From the NCBI GenBank assembly GCA_045660545.1, contig JAZREA010000019.1, forward strand, positions 21,179 to 85,178: DNA of 64,000 nt, read 5' to 3'. Shown here piece by piece: positions 22,782-59,543 of this stretch; position 1 is the stretch's first letter; each line of letters begins with the position of its first letter. The translations under genes were made by a program, and so were the position numbers. Under the pieces are notes generated by a model. It saw only the letters and a program-made list of their open reading frames with translations, was not told the origin of the DNA and did not search any database. This stretch comes from Clostridia bacterium (GTDB lineage Bacteria; Bacillota; Clostridia; Monoglobales; Firm-18).

Positions 22782-22862
22782 ATGAATTTTACAACCTGGT
22801 TTGCAATTGCCATAGCAATAATTCTTCCGGTGGCGGTATATATCTTTAACAACAAGGAATGA
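22782..22862 (+). CDS. 26-aa single-pass hydrophobic peptide MNFTTWFAIAIAIILPVAVYIFNNKE
   Basis: Read from sequence; AAGAAAGGA RBS; below ORF-track cutoff. Confidence 0.55.
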   Translation: MNFTTWFAIAIAIILPVAVYIFNNKE

Positions 22863-22864
22863 TT

Positions 22865-22917
22865 TTTTGTCCTGCCTTGTCGGGAGCCTAGTAAGAATGT
22901 CGAAATTTGACGAAAGG
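22865..22917 (+). repeat. Intergenic repeat copy 1 (short form)
   Basis: TTTTGTCCTGCCTTGTCGGGAGCCTAGTAAGAATGTCGAAATTTGACGAAAGG; aligns with 34791-34841. Confidence 0.7.
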
Positions 22918-22927
22918 AAGCATGAAC

Positions 22928-23281
22928 ATGAAGAAACTTAAAATAGTAGTTTTAATCATAATATCAGCGTTTGTACTATTTTGGATTTGTTCAATTGCTA
23001 TGTGCGAATATAATACATATAAGTATGGTGAAATTTTTAGAAATACTAAAATACACGATATTGGTGGTGAAGGATATTTAGACGATTGCAATATAAAAGT
23101 TTTAAAGTATAACAATGATTATGCTAAAGTATATGCAGTTTTTAAAAATGATTTAAATGAAGTAGGATTGGTTTATTATTTTGCAAAAAATGATGATGGT
23201 AATTGGGTTTTTGATTATTATGATTCTGTATATTCAAGGACAGGAAGTGCAGATGGGTTTATTTGGCCGTATATAAGATAA
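22928..23281 (+). CDS. Hypothetical membrane-anchored/secreted protein
   Basis: N-terminal basic plus hydrophobic segment; very AT-rich. Confidence 0.75.
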   Translation: MKKLKIVVLIIISAFVLFWICSIAMCEYNTYKYGEIFRNTKIHDIGGEGYLDDCNIKVLKYNNDYAKVYAVFKNDLNEVGLVYYFAKNDDGNWVFDYYDSVYSRTGSADGFIWPYIR

Positions 23282-23286
23282 ACACA

Positions 23287-23380
23287 TTTTATCCTTAACT
23301 TGATACGAACTACTGATAACTAACATTGGCATCTAGATTATACAGTCTTTATATAAAAGATGTCGAATGTTGTCGAAAGG
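23287..23380 (+). repeat. Intergenic repeat copy 2 (long form)
   Basis: 29-bp core ATTGGCATCTAGATTATACAGTCTTTATA at 23325-23353, identical to 23785-23813. Confidence 0.9.
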
Positions 23381-23391
23381 AGAAATGTATA

Positions 23392-23745
23392 ATGGATTAT
23401 TTATATCAAAATGGTGAGAATGTTTTTGATATATGCAAACTTGATAATGGTGAATTGTTAGTACAAGTTAAAGTGAAAGATTTTTTGGGACAATTTGCTT
23501 ATTGTATTGAAGAAAACAATTTAAATGATTATATGCATTCTTTAGAGCAATTAGATAAATCAGAACAAGGTGAATTAAGATTTTCTGATATGGATTCTGA
23601 TTCATTTATATATTTTGAAAAGACGAAGTTCGGACATATGAAGATAAGCGGACAGTTGGGAATGACATTTCGAAATAACTATCTTATATTTGAAATGGAT
23701 GCAGACCAAACTGTTATAGCAAGATTGATTAAAAGATTAAAATAA
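23392..23745 (+). CDS. Hypothetical protein, resembles WapI-type immunity proteins
   Basis: 117 aa after AAAGGAG; C-terminal GHMKISGQLG...LIFEMDADQT pattern (recalled resemblance only). Confidence 0.6.
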   Translation: MDYLYQNGENVFDICKLDNGELLVQVKVKDFLGQFAYCIEENNLNDYMHSLEQLDKSEQGELRFSDMDSDSFIYFEKTKFGHMKISGQLGMTFRNNYLIFEMDADQTVIARLIKRLK

Positions 23746-23840
23746 TTTTTAGACCTAACTTTATATGAACTATCGCTGAAAATGATTGGCATCTAGATTA
23801 TACAGTCTTTATAGTAAAGAATGTCGAAAAATGTAGAAAA
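23746..23840 (+). repeat. Intergenic repeat copy 3 (long form)
   Basis: CCTAACTTTATATGAACT...core 23785-23813...AAGAATGTCGAAA. Confidence 0.9.
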
Positions 23841-23861
23841 AGATAAAAAGGAGAAAAAGCA

Positions 23862-25001
23862 ATGTTTGAAAAGTTAAAAAGTTTTTGTGATTCGTTTCTG
23901 GAACTTGGAGTTCCGGGCTTTGATTTAGTGATTTACAAAGACGGAGAATGTATTCTCAGGTATATGAATGGCTATAGTGATCTTGAAAACAAGGTTAAAA
24001 TAGACGGAAAGGAAAAATATAACATTTATTCTTGCTCAAAGGTTATCACTTGTACAGCTGCTTTGCAGTTATTGGAAAAGGGATTGTTTTCGCTTGAAGA
24101 TAAACTTTCTGACTTTATGCCCGAATTTAAGGAAATGACGGTCAAGACCGATGACGGTATTAAAAAGGCTGAAAAACCAATTTTAATAAAGCATTTATTT
24201 GAAATGACTGCAGGTTTTTCCTATGCCTGCTATTCACCGCAGTTAAAAAGATGCATTGATGAAACTGTCGGCAAATGTCCTACTCGTGAGGTAATGAAGT
24301 ATCTTGCTAAGGAACCATTGCTTTTTGAACCCGGCGACAGATGGGAGTATAGTTTATGTCATGATGTACTAGCGGCTTTTGTTGAGATTGTATCGGGTGA
24401 AAAATTTGAAGTATATGTCAAAAAGAATATTTTTGATGTTATTGGAATGAATAATTCTACTTTTATGTTGCCTGATGCAGAAATTGAAACCATTGCACCG
24501 CAATATAGATTTGAAGATGGAAAAGCAGTTAATGTTGGAAAACCCATATTTAACTATAAAATCGGCTCTGAATATGCATCGGGCGGTGCTGGTTGCATTT
24601 CTACGGTAGATGATTACATAAAGTTTTTAGAGGGCTTACGTACTTGTAAATTGCTAAAACCTGAAACAGTTGAACTAATGATGAGCGACCGTTTAACAGA
24701 TGAGCAAAAAAGGACATATTGGACAAAAGACTCCCATGGTTATGGTTTGGGAGTGCGTTGCCCTAAAGGTGATAAAAGATATATTGATTTTGGTTGGGGC
24801 GGTGCTGCAGGCGCGTATCTTGCTATTGATGTTCAGAATGCAATTTCGATTTATTTTGGCACACATTTATTATCTTCTCCCGCCCAGGGGTTACGTTCGA
24901 TGCTTTATAGATTTGTAATAGCAGAACTGATTGACAACAGCGAGTTCGAAAGGGCGTATAAAGATTTGGAAGATTTGCATAATTATAAATTAACCTATTA
25001 A
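23862..25001 (+). CDS. Serine hydrolase, beta-lactamase/class C-like family
   Basis: YSCSK SxxK motif, LLFEPGDRWEYS, FGWGGAAG. Confidence 0.9.
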   Translation: MFEKLKSFCDSFLELGVPGFDLVIYKDGECILRYMNGYSDLENKVKIDGKEKYNIYSCSKVITCTAALQLLEKGLFSLEDKLSDFMPEFKEMTVKTDDGIKKAEKPILIKHLFEMTAGFSYACYSPQLKRCIDETVGKCPTREVMKYLAKEPLLFEPGDRWEYSLCHDVLAAFVEIVSGEKFEVYVKKNIFDVIGMNNSTFMLPDAEIETIAPQYRFEDGKAVNVGKPIFNYKIGSEYASGGAGCISTVDDYIKFLEGLRTCKLLKPETVELMMSDRLTDEQKRTYWTKDSHGYGLGVRCPKGDKRYIDFGWGGAAGAYLAIDVQNAISIYFGTHLLSSPAQGLRSMLYRFVIAELIDNSEFERAYKDLEDLHNYKLTY

Positions 25002-25043
25002 AAATGTAAAATACGTAGGTAGTTTTGTTGTAATAAAAATATA

Positions 25044-25096
25044 TTTTTGGGTTCTAACATGACATGAACTGCTACTGAAAAACTTTTGCATCTAAA
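25044..25096 (+). repeat. Intergenic repeat copy 4 (partial, degenerate)
   Basis: TTCTAACATGACATGAACTGCTACTGAAAAACTTTTGCATCTA matches the 5' half of copies 2 and 3. Confidence 0.7.
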
Positions 25097-25145
25097 CCGT
25101 CTGTCCCGCATAACTCGGATTATATCCTAAAAAGGAGAGAAGAAA

Positions 25146-25652
25146 ATGAAGTATTTAATTGTAGTTGATATGCAAAATGATTTTATAACAGGCAGTCTGG
25201 GTAGTGTGCTTGCCGAGAAAATTGTGCCTGATGTAGTTGAAAAGGTTAAAAATTTTGATGGTAAAATTATATTCACAAGAGATACACATTTTGCAGACTA
25301 TATGCAGACACAGGAAGGCGAAAATCTTCCGGTAGAGCATTGTATTAAAGATACTGATGGTTGGCAGATTTGTGATGAACTTAAGGCTTATGCTAATGAA
25401 GTTGTTGATAAAATCACATTTGGAAGTGTCGATTTGCCAGGAATACTGAAAGATTATGGCGATGAGATAGATGAAATAGAATTGTGCGGATTGTGTACAG
25501 ATATTTGCGTAATTTCAAACGCTATGATATTAAAAGCGAGCTTTCCTGAAACAAAAATAGTTGTTGATGGCAAGTGCTGTGCAGGAGTTAGTGTCGAAAG
25601 TCACAAAACAGCACTTGAGGCTATGAAGGCAGTGCAAATAGAAATCGTGTAA
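25146..25652 (+). CDS. Cysteine hydrolase (isochorismatase/nicotinamidase family)
   Basis: VVDMQNDF, TRDTH, HC, DK.TFGS, GLCTDICV. Confidence 0.92.
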   Translation: MKYLIVVDMQNDFITGSLGSVLAEKIVPDVVEKVKNFDGKIIFTRDTHFADYMQTQEGENLPVEHCIKDTDGWQICDELKAYANEVVDKITFGSVDLPGILKDYGDEIDEIELCGLCTDICVISNAMILKASFPETKIVVDGKCCAGVSVESHKTALEAMKAVQIEIV

Positions 25653-25698
25653 TTTGAATAGCTTGAAAACGATAACTTTTGAATTATGATTATATGAT

Positions 25699-25792
25699 TT
25701 TTTACTCCTGTCTTGACACGAGCTTGACGCTAAAAAGATTGTCATATAGATTATACAGTCTTTATATAAAGAGTGTAAAATATTGGCGAAAA
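25699..25792 (+). repeat. Intergenic repeat copy 5 (long form)
   Basis: TCCTGTCTTGACACGAGC then core ATTGTCATATAGATTATACAGTCTTTATA (27/29 to copy 2) at 25738-25766. Confidence 0.85.
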
Positions 25793-25833
25793 GCCAAAGA
25801 ATAATTTTAAAACGATATAAAGGGGAGTTTGTT

Positions 25834-26571
25834 ATGAAATTAATAAAAGACATTTGTTATGGTAAATCTAAACATCCGGAGCAGTATCTTGATTTATACC
25901 TTCCGGATAGTGATGAGTTCAAGGTTTTTGTGTATATGCACGGCGGCGGAATGGAACGCGGTGACAAAAAAAGTGCAAGTATAGTTGGTGAATATGTAGC
26001 AAGCCAGGGTATAGCGTTTGTGTCAGTAAATTACAGGATGTATCCACAGGCTATGTATCCCCAGTTTATTTGTGATGCGGCAGAGGCCGTTGGCTGGATA
26101 TATAACAATATTAATCAGTATGGAAAATGCGAAGGGATATATATCGGCGGAAGCAGTGCTGGTGGATATCTTTCAATGATGCTTTGCTTTGATAGCAGAT
26201 TTTTGTCTCCGTATAAGTTGCCTTCTGATGTAATAAAAGGATATGTTCATGATGCCGGTCAGCCAACAACACATTATAACGTACTTAGAGAACGTGGGAT
26301 TGATTCCCGAAGAGTGATAATTGACGAGGCGGCGCCACTATATCATATTGGAAACGCTGATAGCTATCCGCCTATGATGTTTATTGTTTCGGATAATGAT
26401 ATGAAAAATCGATATGAACAAACCCAGTTAACTATTTCTACATTAAAGCATTTTGTATACGATGAGAGTAAAATATATTATCGACTTATGAATGGTACAC
26501 ACTGTCACTATTCAAAAACAGAAGCATTTGGGAAAATGGTTTGTGAATTTATAAGAGAAACGGAAAAGTAA
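25834..26571 (+). CDS. Alpha/beta hydrolase (esterase/lipase)
   Basis: HGGG oxyanion motif, VNYR, GSSAGG nucleophile elbow. Confidence 0.9.
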   Translation: MKLIKDICYGKSKHPEQYLDLYLPDSDEFKVFVYMHGGGMERGDKKSASIVGEYVASQGIAFVSVNYRMYPQAMYPQFICDAAEAVGWIYNNINQYGKCEGIYIGGSSAGGYLSMMLCFDSRFLSPYKLPSDVIKGYVHDAGQPTTHYNVLRERGIDSRRVIIDEAAPLYHIGNADSYPPMMFIVSDNDMKNRYEQTQLTISTLKHFVYDESKIYYRLMNGTHCHYSKTEAFGKMVCEFIRETEK

Positions 26572-26586
26572 AAAATATTGATAACA

Positions 26587-26615
26587 AAAACCGGTCGATA
26601 AAATCGACCGGTTTT
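26587..26615. terminator. Bidirectional terminator
   Basis: AAAACCGGTCGAT-AAA-ATCGACCGGTTTT between convergent genes. Confidence 0.85.
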
Positions 26616-26637: not shown

Positions 26638-29600
26638 TCAGATTTTTTGTTCCTGCAAATTTGAATCGGAAAAATCCAATACGTATTCTTTTATATTGCT
26701 GTTTTGTGCAACATAAAACCTTTCTTTTGCCTCGCCTTGAGCTGTAAAGCTGTTTTGGTTTACACAAACAACTTCTGCAAGTTCGTTTTCCGGCCAAACA
26801 AAAGTGTTTGTGTCGGTAACAATTTTAACAATTTTGCCAAACGGCATTTCTACATCGAAGGATGTGTTTTTGGTAACAACTTTTGCTTTTCGTAAAGTAT
26901 CGTCTGTATTATACCAGTCTACCGCGGTAAGGTAAATGTGGTATGTGTTATCTTCCTGTTTAAAGATACTGTACTGGACATCATCGCCGCACTCGACGCG
27001 AACCTTTTCGTTTTTAAGTATTTCGTCGGCACAGCTTTTTATAAGATTGTTGTATACGGAATAAATCGCCTTATTACCCGGGTAGCAAAGGGTGTTTACA
27101 AGGATAATTTTACCTTTTCCGCATTCTAATTCATACACAACGTCTTCTGTATCGAAATCCGGACTGATTTTTTTAAGGTTATCAGAAAGATTTACACAAA
27201 CCTTGATTTGCGTACCTGCAATATTTTTTGACTCGAATTTTGGAGCGCCGTTTGCAAGCTTGTCGGTAATTGGATTTGAAACAACGTTAATATTAAAATT
27301 ATCGAGTTCATCTTTGTTTGTTGTATCGGTGAAATGCGCCCAGGTGCAAATAAGAGTTGAGCCGTTTTCTACTGCATTTAAAATCCTTTGGGTATCTTCA
27401 ACGGTAGAGTAGTTGTATCCTGCAAAAACAAGGAGAGCATATTTTGATAAATCGCCTGTTTCAACCGGCACTGCATCTACATTACCTCTTGGTGTACCGC
27501 TGAAAGTTCCGAAAGGCACATCCCTTTGTGGCGAAACAAAGCCTGTTTTGTGTGCGCCCTGTTCGTTAAGTGCGTCGAGCGGATAGAAAGATTTAAGGTG
27601 TATCCATGAATCACTTTCGTCGCCCGGCTTGATAGAAGGAATACCCCACTGGGTGTTAACCAAAAAGCCGTTCCATCCATCCATTCTTCCGTGTAAAAAT
27701 GCAAACGGAGTATAGAAAGTACCTGTTCTTGAATGTGTTCTTACAAACTTATTAAAGCGTAAAAGCTCTTCCCTGTGCTTTTCGCACGCTAAGGACAAAC
27801 GATTGTGGTAGGCATAAAAAGCCTCCATAAACCACAGGCCTTCTTCGGTGTTTATATCGGTTACTCCCTGAAGATATGGAACATAAAGAGAGAGGAGGTA
27901 TCTCCTGTAACGTCTTAGGTTGTCGTGAGGAAATGTTGACCACTGAAGAGCGAGATGTACACCGTATTTGTCTTTGTTGTATGCCTGTGATGCACCTCTT
28001 AAGAAAGACAAAAGAATCTCGGTAGAACTATCCATTGTTTCTGTACCAACCCACTCAAAACCGTTTTGTAAAAAGTATTTGTACATAACGGAAGGGCCTG
28101 TATGTCTTGTAAAGTTGCCGCTGCTAAGTAACTTTAATTCCTGCGAGGCTATATCGTGTGCCATAGCCATATCGTTTGACTCGGGAGTTTTTCTTGCATA
28201 AGAATACTCGCCGTCTTTATACATAATGTTAAAAGGTCTGTATGAGCTTTCTATTGTTTCGGGATACTCTCTGGCAAGTCTTGCCGCAAGGTCGTAAAAT
28301 TCTTCAAGAGGAGCTTCTATTTCGCGAGGTCTGCCGTTTTCCTGAGTCCAGTAAAACAACTGGCCGTCCCTTTCGTGGAGTTGACGTCCCATAAAGTGCT
28401 TTCCACTTAGCATTTTTTCGCTCGGGTTTGTGTGTACACCGGGAATGTCGCGTCCGTCAGATATGTGAACATAGTTAAGTTCAAGCTTTTCACAAAGGCG
28501 TGTAAACACATTCCATACACGAGAGTTTACAAATCTCTGACCGCCCCAGCGGTAAACAGGACGAATGGTAATGAAGCTACCAATATCGTTAGCTATGTAC
28601 CATTTAATGTAGTCACAAACAGATTTTAGGCTTGATACGTCAATGTAGATCATATCGCCGCTTGCAGTAATAACATTATCGTTGGTTTTACTAACGCAGC
28701 GCCTCATGGTATATGATTTTGAAAAAGAATCTGATTTAAGGGTAAAGGAGAGCCCGTTTTTGGCTTTAAGCGGTTTTAGCGATAAAACCACAAGATTAAC
28801 CTCATCAAAAACGGTTTTTTCTGTAAGTTCAAAATCCGAGCTTTCAAATTCTATATTTACATCGTTGTTTTTTGTTTCTACAAGGAGCTTCAGATCTTTA
28901 TCTGCATAGAATTCGTCTGCTGAATTCATAAGTGTAAACGGAGTATTTTCCTTTTCTAAAACCAGTATTTCGTCAAACAGAAGAGGTATTACATCGTGGT
29001 AATTGCTTGTATATTTAATTGAAATTGTGTTTTCGCCGTTGGTAAATACACCTTCGGGGAGTTCAATTTCCACAGGTGAAAAACGATGGATTTTAAGAAA
29101 CACCTCACCTTTATAGCACAAATTTCCGTTTACTGATATTTCAAATTCCGGCCAATCTCTTTTTGAAAGATTCTGTCCGAGCCAGGCAAACCTTGTAAGA
29201 CCAATGTTGCCTCTGTCAAATTCGGGAAGAAGATTTCTGCCTTCTGTGTCGCAGATAAACGGTGATTCAAAATACAGATTTCCTGAATAGTTTTCGCCTT
29301 CGAGCGTGATAATTACACAGGCAGTTTTCTGTTGTTCTATTTTAATATGTTTTTTAAGCTCAGTAAAATCATAGGTACCCTCGGGCACGTTTATAATATG
29401 ACGTTCGTCGGGTGCGGCGGTTGTATCATTAGGGCTTATTCCGTCTTTTGTGTACCACACATCGAGTATTATGCGCACATATCCGCCATCTTCAATTTTA
29501 AGATTACGCGCTTTTGCGCTCATACCAAAAGACCATTCGTCAGAGTATTCGGTAAAATCTTCATACGGAAACAGCCCGTACAACAACCCCTGCCATACAA

Positions 29601-29898
29601 CTTTTTTTAACACTCTTTTTGCGTATGGAAGAGGATTCTGCGTTGAATAATCAAGACAGAAACGGTTATTTTTTGACTCTTCATAATTAAGAGAATCGTC
29701 TATGAGCATATACAAAAGCTCCGCTCCTGATTCGTTTTTAAGTGTCGGAGCCGATGCATCTTCACAGGAAAAAAAGAGCTTGTGCAGATTGTTTGTATTA
29801 ATATTGCTGCCATCTAATTTGAAGGTCAATTCCTGACCTTTTTTTAACACAACATTTTTGTTGTCGGATTTTAAATCAATCTTTTTTGATTGTATCAT
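26638..29898 (-). CDS. Large hypothetical protein (1086 aa), possibly carbohydrate-active enzyme-like
   Basis: Long ORF with AGGAG RBS; aromatic/acidic central region; no firm family match by eye. Confidence 0.75.
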   Translation of the reverse strand: MIQSKKIDLKSDNKNVVLKKGQELTFKLDGSNINTNNLHKLFFSCEDASAPTLKNESGAELLYMLIDDSLNYEESKNNRFCLDYSTQNPLPYAKRVLKKVVWQGLLYGLFPYEDFTEYSDEWSFGMSAKARNLKIEDGGYVRIILDVWYTKDGISPNDTTAAPDERHIINVPEGTYDFTELKKHIKIEQQKTACVIITLEGENYSGNLYFESPFICDTEGRNLLPEFDRGNIGLTRFAWLGQNLSKRDWPEFEISVNGNLCYKGEVFLKIHRFSPVEIELPEGVFTNGENTISIKYTSNYHDVIPLLFDEILVLEKENTPFTLMNSADEFYADKDLKLLVETKNNDVNIEFESSDFELTEKTVFDEVNLVVLSLKPLKAKNGLSFTLKSDSFSKSYTMRRCVSKTNDNVITASGDMIYIDVSSLKSVCDYIKWYIANDIGSFITIRPVYRWGGQRFVNSRVWNVFTRLCEKLELNYVHISDGRDIPGVHTNPSEKMLSGKHFMGRQLHERDGQLFYWTQENGRPREIEAPLEEFYDLAARLAREYPETIESSYRPFNIMYKDGEYSYARKTPESNDMAMAHDIASQELKLLSSGNFTRHTGPSVMYKYFLQNGFEWVGTETMDSSTEILLSFLRGASQAYNKDKYGVHLALQWSTFPHDNLRRYRRYLLSLYVPYLQGVTDINTEEGLWFMEAFYAYHNRLSLACEKHREELLRFNKFVRTHSRTGTFYTPFAFLHGRMDGWNGFLVNTQWGIPSIKPGDESDSWIHLKSFYPLDALNEQGAHKTGFVSPQRDVPFGTFSGTPRGNVDAVPVETGDLSKYALLVFAGYNYSTVEDTQRILNAVENGSTLICTWAHFTDTTNKDELDNFNINVVSNPITDKLANGAPKFESKNIAGTQIKVCVNLSDNLKKISPDFDTEDVVYELECGKGKIILVNTLCYPGNKAIYSVYNNLIKSCADEILKNEKVRVECGDDVQYSIFKQEDNTYHIYLTAVDWYNTDDTLRKAKVVTKNTSFDVEMPFGKIVKIVTDTNTFVWPENELAEVVCVNQNSFTAQGEAKERFYVAQNSNIKEYVLDFSDSNLQEQKI

Positions 29899-40122: not shown

Positions 40123-41430
40123 TTACAATTTAGTCAAGTTAAATACCCATTTAAGCCAACAAGAAACCGAAGTAGAACGCCGTTCTATCTGTCCTTTATT
40201 ACAAACATTCAATTCTTTCATCATCTTTGTAATATCGCTTTTCTTTGGAAGTTCCCCAGAACTAATAATTTCATCAAAGAAGTGAGCATATATTTTATGT
40301 TGTAAAATCAAACTGACTATTTTAAGTTGTCGTTCTTTATAGTTTAACTTAAAAACTCTATTTCCAAGTTCGGTTAGTTGTACGAAAATTTGTTTATCTT
40401 CCTTGACTTTTTCAAACAACCCCAAATATTTCCCAGCATTAAAATAATAATCAGATTGTCTTTCTTGAAAATCCATAAGTTCTGCTATCTGGACTGTTGT
40501 CATAGGATTATCATACATATTTTCAAGTAGAGAAATAATGCGATCCATTGAATCTGCCTGAACAAATGGTATGGTTGTTTTTTCCATATTATCATCTGTT
40601 ATAATGTTTGTATTGTTCCTGACAGAGATTAAATCTTCCATATCAATACTGGTATCTTGTAATGAATAGTTTTTTGTCTTGACCAATTCAATAGAAGAAT
40701 AATCTTCAAGTTTTGTAAATCTATATTCAAACAATCTATATATCATATTTGAATATACAGAGAACACAAGTCTTATAGGCTTATTTACTTTTGTTTTCCA
40801 CAATCTATATGGATAATATAATTGTCTTATATGAAAATCTTCATATACAACATTTTTGGCTTCCATTATAACTACTGATTCATCATTTTCAAAACCACCG
40901 TCAATTTCACAACGAGCATTATTAACTACAACATTCCTTTTTATGTTTCTAAAAGTATCTACTTGAAACTCAAAAGTCCCCGTCCCCATTTTTCCATTAA
41001 ATGTTGAAACATTTTTACTTGTTCCCAGAAAATCGTCAAGTATGCCTGTTAGAATCAATACATTTATAGCATTAGCCTCGGAGTTTATATTGTTTATGTC
41101 TATTGACTCATACTCTGGCACATCAACATGTGTCATTTTTTCCACTTTTTCTTCCAATTCAGGTATTTCTTGATATAGTATAAAATCACTTATAACATAA
41201 GAACTGCTACTGTCAGGCAGAATATTTAGTTTGTTTTTCCTCAATATATCTGGAAGTGATGATGTGCTGTCCCATTTTGCCATAAGTCTAGGTTCTTTAT
41301 ATTCTTTTATTTGACTTGCCTTTATATGAAATATTCCGTTTGTTTCAACTTCTTGTATGATATTATATTTTTCTATTAACTCTTTCCAAGCGTCATTAGT
41401 AGAAAGGTTTTTACTTTTGTTCTGGGACAT
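40123..41430 (-). CDS. Putative type II restriction endonuclease (PD-(D/E)xK)
   Basis: EIDGGFE...IMEAK catalytic motif, RQLYYPYRLW; overlaps methylase gene. Confidence 0.75.
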   Translation of the reverse strand: MSQNKSKNLSTNDAWKELIEKYNIIQEVETNGIFHIKASQIKEYKEPRLMAKWDSTSSLPDILRKNKLNILPDSSSSYVISDFILYQEIPELEEKVEKMTHVDVPEYESIDINNINSEANAINVLILTGILDDFLGTSKNVSTFNGKMGTGTFEFQVDTFRNIKRNVVVNNARCEIDGGFENDESVVIMEAKNVVYEDFHIRQLYYPYRLWKTKVNKPIRLVFSVYSNMIYRLFEYRFTKLEDYSSIELVKTKNYSLQDTSIDMEDLISVRNNTNIITDDNMEKTTIPFVQADSMDRIISLLENMYDNPMTTVQIAELMDFQERQSDYYFNAGKYLGLFEKVKEDKQIFVQLTELGNRVFKLNYKERQLKIVSLILQHKIYAHFFDEIISSGELPKKSDITKMMKELNVCNKGQIERRSTSVSCWLKWVFNLTKL

Positions 41431-46577: not shown

Positions 46578-48290
46578 ATGAGAAACAGAGAATTACAAGT
46601 TGTAGGTTATGCGAGATATTCTTCTGACCTACAAAGAGAAGAAAGTATTGAAGCACAAGAAAGAGCAATTAGAGAATTTTGCGATAAAGAGGGTTATACC
46701 CTAATCAAGTTTTATGAAGATAGAGCACAATCGGCAAAAACCGATAACAGAACTGCTTTCAAGCAGATGATTGCCGATAGTAGTAAAGGCAGATTTGATG
46801 CCATTGTAGTACATAAACTTGACCGCTTTGCCAGAAACAGATATGATTCGGCACATTACAAGTATATTATTAAGTCAAACGGAGTTAAACTGTTCAGCGT
46901 AACAGAAAGGCTTGATGATAGTCCAGAAAGTGTTATTCTGGAATCGGTTTTAGAAGGTATGGCTGAATATTATATTCTTAACCTTGCCAGAGAAGTTGAA
47001 AAAGGCAAAATGGAAAACGCCTTAAAATGTAATCATACGGGGGGACTTCCCCCGCTTGGCTACAATGTAGATAAACAAACAAAGAAACTCGTAATCAATC
47101 CAGACGAAGCAGGTGCGGTAAAACTGATATTTGAAAACATCTTAAAGGGAGAATCCTATATGGATGTTGTAAATGAATTAAATCGTAAAGGCTATAAGAC
47201 CAAAACTGGAAATGTGTTTGGAAAGAACTCACTATTTTCAATTTTGAAAAACGAAAAGTATTGTGGCACATATATTTACAATAAGTCTGAAAAGGCAAAT
47301 AGTGCTACAAAAAAGAGAAATGGGCATAAATACAAGCCAGATGAAGAAATTGTCAGAATTGAAAATGGTTGCCCTGCCCTTATAAGTAAAGATGATTTTG
47401 ATAAGGTTCAAAAGATAATGAAAGAAAGGCAACAGAGAGCAGGCAGTTTCAAAGCACGAGAAACATATTTATTGTCTGGGAAAATTATCTGTGGCGAATG
47501 TGAATCTGCCTATGTTGGAAATAGCAGAAAGGCAAATGATACACACCCACAATATGTAAGTTATCGTTGCACCCATAAAAATCAAAAGGTTAAATGTCAT
47601 AATGGCGAAGTCAATCGTGATGTCCTTGATAAGAGTGTAGTTCAACTTATTAGTAAAATTGTCTTTGACGAAAGCAGAATTGAAGAAATTGTTTCTGCTT
47701 ATAGGAAATATCACAATTCACAAGATGATAACTATACACAAGAGATTAAAAGGCTTGAAAAACTCATTGATAGTGTAAATTACAAAATCAACAATACAAC
47801 TAATGCTATTGCTTCAATAGGTTTTTCACAAGCACTTGCTGATAGTTTGAAATCTCTTGAAAATGAAAAAATCAGTTTAGATATTGAACTTGAAAATGTA
47901 AAGGCGAAAGCCAGAGAAACAACATTAACAGAAGATGTAATTCTTGAAGCATTCAGATATGCTAAATCAGAGTTTGAAAACGGCACATTGAAAGGTATTA
48001 AAGAAATTGTAAATCTTTTTGTTGATAAAGTGGTAGTCTATGAAGATAAAGTGGAAATAACATTATGCTATGGTAATGATTTATTAAAACTTGTAGCAGA
48101 TGACTACGGCAAGGATAATTCCTTGCGGTTTAGGATTGTTGAATTTATTCCTGCCAGAATTTTAGACAAAAAAAGAAAACACAATTTTTTTCAAAATTGT
48201 GTTTTCTCTGGCGGAGAAGGAGAGATTCGAACTCTCGCGCCGGTTTCCCGACCTACACCCTTAGCAGGGGCGCCTCTTCGGCCTACTTGA
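46578..48290 (+). CDS. Large serine recombinase (integrase)
   Basis: YARYSS catalytic Ser, DRFAR, recombinase domain, CGEC...C zinc ribbon, coiled coil; 3' end runs antisense through tRNA-Ser. Confidence 0.95.
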   Translation: MRNRELQVVGYARYSSDLQREESIEAQERAIREFCDKEGYTLIKFYEDRAQSAKTDNRTAFKQMIADSSKGRFDAIVVHKLDRFARNRYDSAHYKYIIKSNGVKLFSVTERLDDSPESVILESVLEGMAEYYILNLAREVEKGKMENALKCNHTGGLPPLGYNVDKQTKKLVINPDEAGAVKLIFENILKGESYMDVVNELNRKGYKTKTGNVFGKNSLFSILKNEKYCGTYIYNKSEKANSATKKRNGHKYKPDEEIVRIENGCPALISKDDFDKVQKIMKERQQRAGSFKARETYLLSGKIICGECESAYVGNSRKANDTHPQYVSYRCTHKNQKVKCHNGEVNRDVLDKSVVQLISKIVFDESRIEEIVSAYRKYHNSQDDNYTQEIKRLEKLIDSVNYKINNTTNAIASIGFSQALADSLKSLENEKISLDIELENVKAKARETTLTEDVILEAFRYAKSEFENGTLKGIKEIVNLFVDKVVVYEDKVEITLCYGNDLLKLVADDYGKDNSLRFRIVEFIPARILDKKRKHNFFQNCVFSGGEGEIRTLAPVSRPTPLAGAPLRPT

Positions 48291-57391: not shown

Positions 57392-58360
57392 ATGATTAAT
57401 TTTGACGACTGTACCCCTGAATTAAAGGATTTTCTTACATATTTAGAGGTTATCAAAGGTAAATCAAATAACACTGTTAATGCATACTATTACGATTTAA
57501 GACTGTTTTATAAATTTGTAAAGTACAAAAACAACAGCTCTTTTAAATTGGAACAAATCGATGAGCTTCAGATTAACGATGTACCTTTTGAACAAATCAA
57601 AAAGATACGCCTTACTGATTTGTATGAATATATGAATTACGTTAACAGATATCGTTCCAATTCTTCTTCCGCACGTGCCCGTAAGGTTTCATCGCTGAAA
57701 ACGTATTTTAAATACCTGACCAACAAGGCCGAGCTGATTGACATAGACCCAACTGTCGAGCTTGATGCGCCGAAAATCAGCAAAAGGATGCCCAGATATC
57801 TCGATTTGGACAGCAGTATTAAACTGTTAGACGCTGCGCAGACACTAAATGAGCGTGATTTTTGCATATTAACTTTGCTTTTGAACTGTGGGCTGCGTGT
57901 ATCTGAACTGGTTTCAATTAATCTTACAGATATCAGCGAGAGCAACCTTAGAGTTATAGGTAAAGGCGACAAGGAACGCCAGGTTTTCCTTAATCAGTCA
58001 TGTATAGATGCTATAAACAACTATCTCTCTGTACGTCCAAAGGCTAAGCACGGCTCTGAAAACGCGCTGTTTTTAAACCATCACGACGCAAGGCTTGGAG
58101 TGCGCGGAATCCAGCTTATAGTTAAGAAATATCTTATGCTTGCCGGGCTTGATTATAATTCATACACTACTCACAAGCTCCGCCATACGGCAGCAACGCT
58201 TATGTATAAGCATGGAAACGTTGACGTTTTGACGTTGCAAAAGATTTTGGGCCATACCAATCTTTCAACTACACAAATATACACCCACACGGACGATAAG
58301 CAAATTGAAAATGCTATTAAAAGCAATCCACTGGCGCAATATTCTCCTAAGGACAATTAA
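57392..58360 (+). CDS. xerC: XerC-family tyrosine recombinase
   Basis: GLRVSEL, GKGDKER, HKLRHT, LGH, TTQIY catalytic residues. Confidence 0.9.
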   Translation: MINFDDCTPELKDFLTYLEVIKGKSNNTVNAYYYDLRLFYKFVKYKNNSSFKLEQIDELQINDVPFEQIKKIRLTDLYEYMNYVNRYRSNSSSARARKVSSLKTYFKYLTNKAELIDIDPTVELDAPKISKRMPRYLDLDSSIKLLDAAQTLNERDFCILTLLLNCGLRVSELVSINLTDISESNLRVIGKGDKERQVFLNQSCIDAINNYLSVRPKAKHGSENALFLNHHDARLGVRGIQLIVKKYLMLAGLDYNSYTTHKLRHTAATLMYKHGNVDVLTLQKILGHTNLSTTQIYTHTDDKQIENAIKSNPLAQYSPKDN

Positions 58361-58373
58361 TACTTTACATATT

Positions 58374-58412
58374 AAAAGACAGCTTTAAAATTAAATCCGG
58401 CTGTCTTTTTTT
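58374..58412. terminator. Bidirectional terminator
   Basis: AAAAGACAGC...GCTGTCTTTTTT between convergent genes. Confidence 0.7.
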
Positions 58413-58420
58413 ATAAAAAT

Positions 58421-58588
58421 TTATTGATTTTCAGGCTTTTCTACATCACTAATAGCTATTTCGGCATAATCACCTTCAAATTCTATGCATTTACCACAGT
58501 TATCACAGATTTTGCTTGAATCTAAATCGCAAATATTACATTCGCCGCAGTCAATGCATCCTCTATCATATAAAATACATTTTTTCAT
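58421..58588 (-). CDS. 55-aa Cys-rich protein (ferredoxin/zinc-binding-like)
   Basis: MKKCILYDRGCIDCGECNICDLDSSKICDNCGKCIE..., 8 Cys. Confidence 0.75.
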   Translation of the reverse strand: MKKCILYDRGCIDCGECNICDLDSSKICDNCGKCIEFEGDYAEIAISDVEKPENQ

Positions 58589-58613
58589 AATCATTTTAGT
58601 TTACATAATAAAA

Positions 58614-59543
58614 TTATGGTAAAACTATCTCCTTTAAAATATCTTTTAAAACTTCAACATCCGAAAGGTAAACCCATTCGTTAGGTGTATATAGGTTTTT
58701 AATCGGTATACCAATAGCTAAAACATTCGATATTGTTGAATTTCTTTGCATAAAGCCTGCTTCACAAATCAGCTTGTCTGTTACTAACCTTTGAATCTTG
58801 TCGTATTTATCAAGCTTTTGAGTAATTTTTATATCTGCTATATAGTTTTTATCTCTTAGAATTACAACAGGTCCATTACCTAAGATTGCCTCTTCGTCTT
58901 CTACTGCACAAATGTTATATAATTCGTCAATATCTACACCGTAAAGCGCAGTTTGTGCACCTTTTTTATCACAATAATTTTGAGCAGAAAATACAAAGTA
59001 ATATTCGAATAGTGAATCTCTGACCTCACGTGCCAAATCACACAAAATTTTGCAACAAACCGACCTTTCTAAAGCTTTTCCTACAATGAATTTATCACTT
59101 TGAGTTAAATTGTTGCTAAAAACAAGGGTTTTTGATATCAATTCACTGTTAAGTATATTTGCTTTACACTTTGATAAAACATTCAGTTTGTAACCATCAA
59201 CCTTGCCATAATTTCCTTTTATTTCGTCATTTTGTGTGTTTAAAAAACAATTTCCGCTATTATCAGACAGTAAAATATTGTGTAATGATTTCGACTTTAC
59301 AGTGCCTATTGATGATGTGACGACAAAATCAGGTGAATTATGATGAGTAATTATAAAGCCTGTCTCATCCATAGGTGCTGTAATGGCAATTTTCTTGCCC
59401 TTACCGGCCTTGTGTATAATCAAATTACCCAAACTATCAACTTTTATATCGGAATAGAAATCGTTAAGTTCATTTATAATTATATTCCTTACTTCCTCTT
59501 CTCTGCCTGACGGCGAATAACAGTCTGAAAGTTTTTTAATCAT
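58614..59543 (-). CDS. M42 peptidase homolog lacking metal ligands
   Basis: SPSGREEEV, DSLGNLI retained; APMDE, ALERS, AQNY, LYTP replace the catalytic motifs. Confidence 0.8.
   Translation of the reverse strand: MIKKLSDCYSPSGREEEVRNIIINELNDFYSDIKVDSLGNLIIHKAGKGKKIAITAPMDETGFIITHHNSPDFVVTSSIGTVKSKSLHNILLSDNSGNCFLNTQNDEIKGNYGKVDGYKLNVLSKCKANILNSELISKTLVFSNNLTQSDKFIVGKALERSVCCKILCDLAREVRDSLFEYYFVFSAQNYCDKKGAQTALYGVDIDELYNICAVEDEEAILGNGPVVILRDKNYIADIKITQKLDKYDKIQRLVTDKLICEAGFMQRNSTISNVLAIGIPIKNLYTPNEWVYLSDVEVLKDILKEIVLP

Follow-up and report, generated by a model that had tools for sequence, protein, structure and literature searches.

The mobile insertion cassettes (MICs) of Bacillus cereus are non-autonomous elements with passenger genes that are moved in trans, through IS231-type inverted ends, by a known transposase, and gene capture of the integron type is, to our knowledge, rare or absent in Firmicutes. 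In T4-type phages, promoter early stem-loops (PeSLs) are described as sigma-70-like promoter cassettes lying between non-essential genes, with insertions, deletions and replacements occurring there and mini-circles proposed as vectors (PMC2839356). The recombinase-associated acquired interbacterial defence clusters of Bacteroidales (rAID-1) are described as arrays low in GC, made of small genes separated by repetitive intergenic sequences “reminiscent of integrons” (10.1101/471110). Putative mobile promoters (PMPs) are highly similar regions found upstream of unrelated genes, common across genera and families and spread by an unknown mechanism (PMC3575422). Here we analyse a 64,000-nt stretch of the genome of a Clostridia bacterium (contig JAZREA010000019.1, assembly GCA_045660545.1; hereafter the window), in which five unrelated genes are joined by copies of a conserved intergenic repeat, hereafter the linker. 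An earlier note, made from the letters of the window alone, had read this locus as an integron-like array in which each gene, together with the repeat preceding it, forms a unit added by site-specific recombination in trans. Comparison with linker-bearing loci of many other genomes indicates that single genes are gained, lost and exchanged as units exactly at the linker, and that its conserved core closes each unit instead of opening it.

Structure of the linker

The linker model was derived from an alignment of 54 full copies from many genomes, complemented with 47 by-stander copies lying outside the selection made by the search pattern. From 5' to 3', the linker consists of a module A, an optional core X or a diverged relative of it, module B (TTGCATCTAAACCTTATGnnTCGCAAT), and a module D, followed by a ribosome-binding site (RBS). 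Module A, with the consensus T(G/A)ATTTTTnnTCCTAACTTGAyAyGAAC, begins at the stop codon of the upstream gene and is separated from X by a variable spacer that ends in an A-tract. The core X (TTGGCATCYRRATTATACAGTCTTTATA) is at least 90% conserved at every position, by-stander copies included, and module D, (T/G)(A/T)AAGAnTGTCGAAnnnTGnCGAAAGGAG, carries two TGTCGAA-type boxes placed 10-11 nt apart together with the RBS. Among the 94 distinct strict D modules found in linker-bearing loci, 36 follow X, 31 come directly after A and the other 27 mostly follow B. Together, X and the first part of D combine into an imperfect palindrome of ~32 bp around a TA (complementarity of 89% over 18 nt and of 75% over 20 nt).

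In the window, the 29-nt core occurs at 23325 and 23785 (29/29 in both) and at 25738 (27/29), three occurrences versus none in 100 shuffled sequences. A repeat search of the window retrieved an 81-nt family and a 30-nt 3' family with three copies each, and an nhmmer search across the whole 1.55-Mb genome found only five linker copies, four of them in the window (one weak) and one on another contig, C5. The earlier note had listed five copies of a single repeat, of which the three core matches stand; copy 1, however, has no core, and copy 4 carries B and lacks the 3' module. The sole variable spot in the core is a YRR triplet (23335-23337, 23795-23797 and 25748-25750), which gives TCTAGA, TCCAGA, TCTGGA, TCCGGA or TCTAAA; this variation fits what C-to-T decay of a methylated TCCGGA would produce, so that the triplet may be a mutation hot spot rather than a recombination marker. 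The copy on contig C5 is the only core of the source genome beyond the window locus. Designating genomes by G (G000 being the source genome), linker-bearing loci by L, and families and genera by f and g, it lies at G000:C5:30597-30694 (about 1450-1550 of L004), between a UDG-family gene and a 217-aa open reading frame (ORF) of no known family, and it is a member of a sub-family whose flanks differ, with a TTTGAAC...GTTCAAA palindrome upstream and another 3' module.

Units and their boundaries

Pairs of loci that share one gene on either side of the linker reveal which of its modules are inherited with which gene. Eleven pairs share the downstream gene. In the ten that could be computed, the stretch from the core to the ATG is 60-96% identical, versus 22-67% for the upstream A and spacer (a stretch of only 17-22 nt in four pairs, owing to the locus end); core-to-ATG identity is the higher of the two values in eight of these ten pairs and lies 5 and 2 points below in the other two. 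Pairs sharing the upstream gene keep A, spacer and X and diverge immediately after ...CAGTCTTTATA, which ends in TTTATA. In an all-against-all comparison, 14 of the 28 ends of high-scoring segment pairs (HSPs) of such pairs fall at 0 to +9 from the last A of TTTATA. Since the leader goes with the downstream gene, and A, spacer and X go with the upstream one, the inherited unit is, on these comparisons, composed of D, gene, stop codon/A, spacer and X, in this order. The order originally proposed for the unit, repeat then gene, did not survive: it is the 3' end of the unit that holds the conserved core.

A unit of 1137 nt, which encodes a PF03601 membrane protein, shows both boundaries. It is present at full length, 99.5-100% identical, in L062, L019, L104 and L102, and its 3' part is 98.9-99.4% identical at the starts of L158 and L103, where the 5' part lies beyond the locus end. 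Its start is the same ATA in every context and six different sequences follow its ...TTTATA, both end points being constant, and its four left neighbours are all different, two of them ending in X and two in a core-less A. Loci L104 and L113 provide a filled and an empty site, with common flanks (85% and 88% identity) and a difference of exactly the 1137-nt unit; the filled site (L104), in which the unit is bounded by X on one side and by a hairpin element on the other, contains two copies of X, the empty site (L113) a single one. The near-identity of this unit in six loci of a collection holding one genome per species makes its recent mobility clear. Likewise, L076 and G006 share a WapI-like unit at 92% identity, although the genes flanking it on either side are unrelated, and a two-gene unit recurs in L091, L144 and L176, its left junction being core-less in one of them. 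At the level of sequence, these comparisons establish the unit boundaries, the gain and loss at the junction and the horizontal spread. Units gained, lost and exchanged at a conserved boundary are gene cassettes in the broad sense, and that part of the earlier note, separate units coming and going exactly at the repeat, is upheld by the filled/empty pair and by the 1137-nt unit in its six loci.

Hairpin-rich elements made of repeated CTCGATATG units (L104, L113, L022, L023, L031, L036, L053 and L129) also start exactly behind ...TTTATA, with another core after them; some of them carry a gene for a DUF559 (Vsr-like) nuclease. Judging from this arrangement, they behave as cassettes of the linker system, with DUF559 as its commonest cargo.

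Distribution and cargo of linker-bearing loci

A scan of 61 related genomes for the core, allowing up to three mismatches, detected it in 18 of them, belonging to two families, and reversed-pattern controls gave 0 matches. By family, the core is found in 10 of 21 genomes of f1, in 7 of 31 of f6 and in 0 of 8 from five other families. Positive genomes have 1-8 copies each, in many cases grouped together and in many cases located at the end of a contig. An exact scan of one genome per species identified at least 119 contigs carrying the linker, from metagenome-assembled genomes (MAGs) labelled Clostridia, Oscillospiraceae, Monoglobaceae, Congzhengia, Ructibacterium and Aphodoplasma. The repeat seen by the earlier note is real, as the shuffled controls and these scans of the genome and its relatives attest. 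Loci L062 and L104, which carry the Clostridia linker and the 1137-nt unit, are short contigs (1.7 and 2.6 kb) in MAGs labelled Alphaproteobacteria, labels that are probably due to mis-binning.

The 119 listed loci contain 189 copies by nhmmer and no locus has copies in mixed orientation. For the 111 copies with module A, the upstream ORF is co-oriented in 92 cases, opposite in 3 and missing from the locus in 16, and 58 of the 92 co-oriented ORFs have their stop codon between -14 and +10 nt from the point where module A begins. Downstream of the 189 copies, the ORF is co-oriented in 153, opposite in 18 and missing in 18. The proteins encoded downstream in these loci, 143 of them distinct, form 123 clusters and range from esterases and glycoside hydrolases to transporters, immunity proteins and nucleases. 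When 142 of them were assigned to Pfam families, there were six DUF559, three RbsD/FucU, three GDSL lipases and two WapI, with GH43, GH123, topoisomerase IV A, MTHFR and polyprenyl synthetase among the single cases; WapI-like immunity proteins are a minority of this cargo (2/142 and 3/150 proteins scanned). No linker match was found in phage, plasmid and viral collections, no Rfam covariance model matched the repeats at E up to 5, and literature searches retrieved neither the core string nor any match joining cassette, immunity and Firmicutes.

The array of the window and its origin

Five same-strand genes fill the stretch from the purL terminator to a convergent gene for a 1086-aa protein (26638-29898, minus strand), in which no Pfam or PADLOC family was recognised. 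The features of this array are the following (plus strand unless stated otherwise):

22782..22862, plus: hydrophobic 26-aa ORF (MNFTTWFAIAIAIILPVAVYIFNNKE, from translation) at the array head; no Pfam family
22860..22891, plus: module A, copy 1 (TGATTTTTTGTCCTGCCTTGTCGGGAGCCTAG), joined straight to D in a core-less A-D junction
22892..22921, plus: module D, copy 1; boxes TGTCGAA 22898-22904 and TGACGAA 22908-22914, then RBS; proposed start of unit 1
22928..23281, plus: gene 1, 117 aa, hydrophobic N-terminal segment; no Pfam or PADLOC family
23279..23324, plus: module A, copy 2, and variable spacer; starts at the stop codon of gene 1
23325..23353, plus: core X, copy 2 (ATTGGCATCTAGATTATACAGTCTTTATA), 0 mismatches; proposed 3' end of unit 1, junction after ...TTTATA
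23337-23356 / 23349-23368: palindrome at copy 2, from the repeat search
23354..23385, plus: module D, copy 2; boxes TGTCGAA 23361-23367 and 23371-23377, RBS AAGGAG; start of unit 2
23392..23745, plus: gene 2, WapI-like immunity protein (PF24716, E 7.5e-7)
23743..23813, plus: third copies of module A and core X with the spacer between them (core 23785-23813); 3' end of unit 2
23814..23856, plus: module D, copy 3; boxes TGTCGAA 23822-23828 and TGTAGAA 23832-23838, then RBS; start of unit 3
23862..25001, plus: gene 3, serine hydrolase, beta-lactamase/transpeptidase-like (PF00144; SCSK at residue 57)
25044..25120, plus: copy 4, A and B (TTTTGCATCTAAACCG...), without X and without D; nhmmer E 0.1
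25146..25652, plus: gene 4, isochorismatase-family cysteine hydrolase (Pfam)
25693..25766, plus: fifth copies of module A and core X with the spacer between them (core 25738-25766, 2 mismatches)
25750-25767 / 25764-25781: palindrome at copy 5, 89% complementary
25767..25833, plus: degenerate module D, copy 5, and leader; TGTAAAA 25774-25780, TGGCGAA 25784-25790; the leader moves with gene 5
25834..26571, plus: gene 5, BD-FAE/alpha-beta hydrolase (Pfam); final gene, without A or X behind it
26587..26615, no strand: terminator hairpin common to the array and the convergent 1086-aa gene; array end

With a GC content of 0.339 versus 0.426 for the genome, the island is AT-rich, and its description as five unrelated genes in one orientation was accurate. 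Genes 2-5 were also correctly called, as judged by Pfam, and the proposed secretion of the gene 1 product goes unconfirmed beyond its hydrophobic N-terminus; PADLOC assigned none of the five array genes to a defence family. The stop codons claimed to lie at the starts of the first three copies are indeed there: those of the 26-aa ORF, gene 1 and gene 2 fall at or inside the repeat start, the TGA of the 26-aa ORF (22860-22862) being the opening three bases of module A. The 26-aa ORF (22782-22862) is very hydrophobic and has its own TTGACA box upstream; its sequence resembles that of a small membrane peptide, possibly of the type-I-toxin kind.

An order-wide DNA search gave, for units 1-4, matches as long as a single unit, each in a different genome of family f6. 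Unit 1 (22902-23384) is 83% identical to G057:C19 and 86% to G145:C54, unit 2 (23356-23750) is 85% identical to G120:C54, the segment of unit 3 (23742-25025) is 88% identical to G155:C43 and 80% to G103:C78, and the segment of gene 4 (25129-25653) is 77% identical to G119:C13 and 74% to G141:C15. Linker copies flank the match in all five loci matching units 1-3, and none was detected in the two loci matching gene 4. Gene 5 and its linker, from module A to the stop codon (25696-26572), are 83.5% identical to G051:C20. Homologues of gene 5 are patchily distributed (19 of 151 genomes of the order) and appear in three contexts: A-X-D (G000, G051), A-D only (G021, between rpoC and rpsL) and neither (G119). 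Within the window's own family, the amino-acid identity of PurL does not exceed 69%. Because each unit or gene matches a different f6 genome at 74-88% DNA identity, unlike PurL, the array is, on this evidence, a mosaic of horizontally acquired single-gene units whose nearest DNA relatives are in another family. Its core-less first junction, with X in later ones, has the pattern expected if X-ended units were inserted at an A-D site.

Neither the island genes nor the repeat occurs downstream of purL in the six nearest family members or in 80 metagenome loci with a PurL 79-82% identical. Arrays occupy variable gaps between conserved operons in three genera. In genus g9, an array lies between two conserved genes whose intervening gene content is different in each of three species; in genus g7, one array is located behind a conserved operon of five genes and is lacking in three sister species. 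The rpoC-rpsL gap of g7 is a variable hot spot in six species and offers no clean empty site for the gene-5 unit, every species differing in content. Another repeat, of 57 nt and 84-93% identical (L343 2136-2200; G006, G014, G016, G020), is found on several g7 contigs, often near contig ends and in the variable rpoC-rpsL gap.

No recombinase adjoins the array; the closest ones in the window are a large serine recombinase (46578-48290) and an Xer-like tyrosine recombinase (57392-58360). The source genome encodes five tyrosine and seven large serine recombinases, and seven of the latter are many for a genome of this size. The serine recombinase of the window is located in another AT-rich region (38-48 kb, GC 0.31-0.34), which may be an integrated element. 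The Xer-like gene codes for 322 aa with PF00589 and a SAM-like N domain, and a dif-like palindrome located ~235 nt beyond it coincides exactly with a gene convergence and a sign change of the GC skew; 57392-58626 is probably the chromosome terminus, with a recombinase-plus-dif module like that of streptococci. We rejected the core as a dif mimic, as by eye it is unlike this candidate palindrome (~58596-58626). Elsewhere in the window, a 435-aa protein (40126-41430, minus strand) is composed solely of DUF6996, DUF6997 and DUF7226.

Mechanism and alternative explanations

With a probability of about 0.5, we interpret these loci as tandem arrays of mobile single-gene cassettes, in which units would be inserted, lost and exchanged right after ...TTTATA by an enzyme encoded away from the array. 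Each unit would comprise a D leader with its two boxes and RBS, one ORF with its stop codon, A, a unit-specific spacer and the core X (...GGCATCYRRATTATACAGTCTTTATA). Between abutting units, X and D would form the ~32-bp imperfect palindrome centred on TA, and the junction would constitute a sigma-A-type promoter made of the A-tract, TGGCAT/TTGGCA, a spacer of 17-18 nt and TATA(T/G)(A/T), followed by the two boxes. The X-D junction reads TGGCAT-17-TATATA and the B-D junction TTGCAT-17-CAATAT, the -35/17/-10 geometry being kept in both, and a promoter scan of the gene strand found TTGGCA-18-TATAGT at 23786-23815. Since the junction reads as a promoter, the 3' end of one unit would drive the gene that follows, and in a circularised unit it would act on the unit's own gene. 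Site-specific insertion at the TA between X and D is favoured because the ends of the 1137-nt unit are constant without homology on the left and with only ~10 nt on the right. We infer that the junction acts as a promoter, that units pass through a circular intermediate and that a dedicated recombinase or transposase, rather than general recombination, catalyses the exchange. In more general terms, and slightly more tentatively, small-genome gut Clostridia may possess a hitherto undescribed non-integron cassette system that passes single genes from species to species, with an invariant 25-29-nt site closing each unit, a fixed TA as insertion point, an unlinked recombinase or transposase and a promoter that, formed at the junction, would express the captured genes on arrival.

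Several observations weigh against this interpretation. The break at the edge of X is ambiguous, because X is conserved in every copy and homologous recombination inside X would give the same edge. There are other break points, at the 5' edge of A in L058/L100 and at -52 in DUF559 units, where six further HSP ends coincide with the borders of the DUF559 hairpins. Promoter function and strand at the X-D junction are predicted from consensus matching only, and the promoter scan scored better on the minus strand (TCGACA-18-TATAAT, 11/12). Some downstream genes are housekeeping-like (topoisomerase IV A, MTHFR), so that the linker would also be an ordinary expression signal. In metagenome contigs from four runs, relatives of 90-95% identity keep the junctions of gene 1 with repeat 2 and of gene 5 with the terminator, and no excision joint was found in the contigs aligned to the window. 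Regarding the enzyme, no recombinase or transposase was found for 150 ORFs of multi-repeat loci among the 25 listed of 159 matched families, Y1 transposase had 0 matches in the source genome, and 3 of the 18 repeat-positive genomes (70-86% complete) gave no match to the large-serine-recombinase domain. IS630-type transposition at TA was discarded, as DDE_3 is present in 1 of 61 genomes and that one is repeat-negative. A recombinase co-occurring with repeat clusters, which the earlier note had proposed to look for, was found neither among the families listed for these ORFs nor by the DDE_3 and serine recombinase checks.

In the same metagenome contigs, depth on repeat bins is 20- to 30-fold in excess. 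DUF559 was considered as a driver and rejected, being absent from the source genome and from 4 of 4 repeat-positive g9 genomes and present in 4 of 9 repeat-free g21 genomes.

The same cassette dynamics might operate without a dedicated enzyme, through homologous or micro-homology recombination between the regulatory linker blocks, which would loop single genes out and insert them again in a PeSL-like manner, an alternative that we regard as a serious rival, if the less likely of the two. It has a precedent in PeSLs, described as sigma-70-like promoter cassettes that recombine, shuffling genes and making mini-circles; set side by side with them, the linker junction has promoter-like hexamers on both strands and no conserved stem-loop. 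The recombinase searches above, in which no linked or co-occurring enzyme appeared among the families listed or in the genome checks, speak for it, as do the breaks at more than one block edge, the promoter geometry kept by X and B with the RBS in D, and the duplication of the 29-nt X at the filled site, expected from a crossover within X. On the other hand, the identical block measures only about 25-45 nt, and such a length of identity is a poor substrate for RecA-type recombination in bacteria. The 1137-nt unit is also hard to reconcile with it: in two of its contexts the unit follows a core-less A, where there is no X for it to pair with, its D has only ~10 nt in common with its right neighbours, and its ends are the same to the base everywhere. 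Finally, conservation drops sharply from X (at least 90% per position) to D, and a promoter spacer needs no such invariance.

It is improbable that the linker is only a conserved regulated promoter, with sigma-A elements and two Spo0A-type boxes, and that the cassette look comes from ordinary horizontal transfer of genes together with their promoters. Expression switched by Spo0A~P has a precedent in abrB. The boxes of D fit the 0A-box consensus, TGNCGAA, and stand, 10-11 nt apart, directly after the -10-like hexamer of a junction that has promoter-like hexamers. Spo0A is encoded by two genes of the source genome (C7:33555-33866 and C4:9923-10234) and present in 51 of 61 relatives, and tandem boxes are rare in the source genome, two of the seven found genome-wide being in the array. 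This explanation nevertheless leaves unaccounted for the position of module A at stop codons, the inheritance of X with the upstream and not the downstream gene, the exact filled/empty pair and the near-invariance of the promoter spacer across families. In addition, the 31 of 94 D modules that come directly after A have no promoter core, the abrB-type genes of the source genome have unrelated upstream regions, and the presence of the repeat does not follow Spo0A copy number. A promoter bound by a transcription factor had been named by the earlier note as a refutation of the cassette idea; the repeat does read as a promoter with an operator, but the roles of cassette and promoter are not exclusive.

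A second, more divergent Spo0A type (116-136 bits) occurs in the repeat-carrying f1 genera g1, g7, g9 and g12, and also in the repeat-free f1 genus g4, and is mostly missing in family f6. The idea that this paralogue tracks the repeat was abandoned, since it holds partly in f1 and fails in f6.

Slightly less probable again is that X with its spacer (~45 nt) is a small mobile promoter, of the type of PMPs or of miniature inverted-repeat transposable elements (MITEs), which would insert between A and D, the genes not being the mobile unit. The three contexts of gene 5, with A-X-D, with A-D and with neither, and the frequency of core-less A-D junctions (31/94) would suit such an element, and PMPs are known as families of near-identical regions that lie upstream of unrelated genes (PMC3575422). 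Nonetheless, the copy number is low (1-8 per genome), spacer and X have neither terminal inverted repeats nor target duplication, they are specific to the upstream gene and move with it, and filled and empty sites differ by whole genes, not by X alone. Module A as an inverted D, which would have provided terminal inverted repeats, was rejected (score 11.5 versus 11.2 in shuffles). With 1-8 cores per genome, no Y1 transposase found in the source genome and no DDE_3 in repeat-positive genomes, the linker does not have the features of MITEs, repetitive extragenic palindromic (REP) sequences or IS200-IS605 elements.

Finally, a classical integron or a cluster of attC sites lacking an integrase (CALIN), which would account for co-oriented unrelated genes in an array of units ending in a conserved site, is almost inconceivable given that the attC boxes are missing (RYYYAAC in 1/5 and GTTRRRY in 0/5 of the window's intergenic repeats), that no fold is conserved (RNAalifold, 0 pairs on 54 copies), that no IntI-like gene lies near the array and that one array-rich genome has only two tyrosine recombinases, side by side. 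Hairpin z-scores for single-stranded DNA are unremarkable in copy 2 (-1.40 and -0.82) and in copy 3 (-0.34 and +0.16), spanning -0.3 to -1.4 on the gene strand; copy 5 alone reaches -3.0, part of its fold being the GGCGAAAAGCC hairpin outside the core palindrome. No IntI with attI and Pc accompanies the first cassette, the nearest tyrosine recombinase (57392-58360) lying 31 kb away beside the dif-like site. On the absence of attC ends and of an adjacent integrase or transposase, the earlier note was right.

Comparison with known systems

The system works like an integron array, yet every integron feature tested fails. It represents a cassette system distributed among Clostridia of the rumen and gut for which MAGs are the sole source of knowledge. 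Should there be a dedicated enzyme, it would define a new recombination system and might serve as a genetic tool in organisms for which none is available. Without such an enzyme, the linker would be a cellular counterpart of the phage PeSL mechanism, in which a shared promoter serves as recombination handle for accessory genes. Either way, it accounts for MAG contigs breaking at the repeat and provides a marker for hypervariable loci.

MICs have inverted ends and a transposase, and none of that kind was found for the linker units. PMPs and promoter-bearing MITEs such as Correia elements have in common with the linker the occurrence of similar upstream regions before unrelated genes. They differ in that PMPs are defined without gene cargo, whereas the core of the linker belongs to the 3' end of the preceding unit, is present in low copy and has no signature of inverted repeats or target duplication. 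The dif modules of Acinetobacter resemble the linker units in being accessory-gene modules bounded by short recombination sites, with the enzyme encoded elsewhere; their sites are XerC/D sites resembling chromosomal dif and mainly found on plasmids, whereas linker sites are direct-oriented and chromosomal, with a core that, by eye, is unlike the candidate dif-like palindrome of the genome (~58596-58626). The rAID-1 arrays are similarly low-GC arrays of small genes in gut bacteria, with immunity genes in their cargo. However, they are headed by a XerD-family recombinase and contain mostly immunity genes, in contrast with linker arrays, which have no linked recombinase and a minority of immunity genes.

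Two systems provide the broadest parallels. PeSLs share with the linker a conserved promoter-like cassette between genes at which genes are exchanged. They are located in phage genomes, include a terminator stem-loop and depend on phage homologous recombination, whereas the linker is chromosomal, has no stem-loop and joins units even where the partner has no core. Integron arrays, with their attC sites and Vibrio repeats, have in common with linker arrays the tandem co-oriented single-gene units of unrelated function, the conserved site closing each unit on its 3' side, the addition and removal of units exactly there and units common to distant genomes. Linker arrays, by contrast, have no attC boxes, no single-stranded DNA hairpin and no adjacent IntI, attI and Pc, and their hosts are Clostridia. 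The cassettes of integrons, furthermore, are mostly promoterless, whereas the site that joins the units of the linker array is itself promoter-like.

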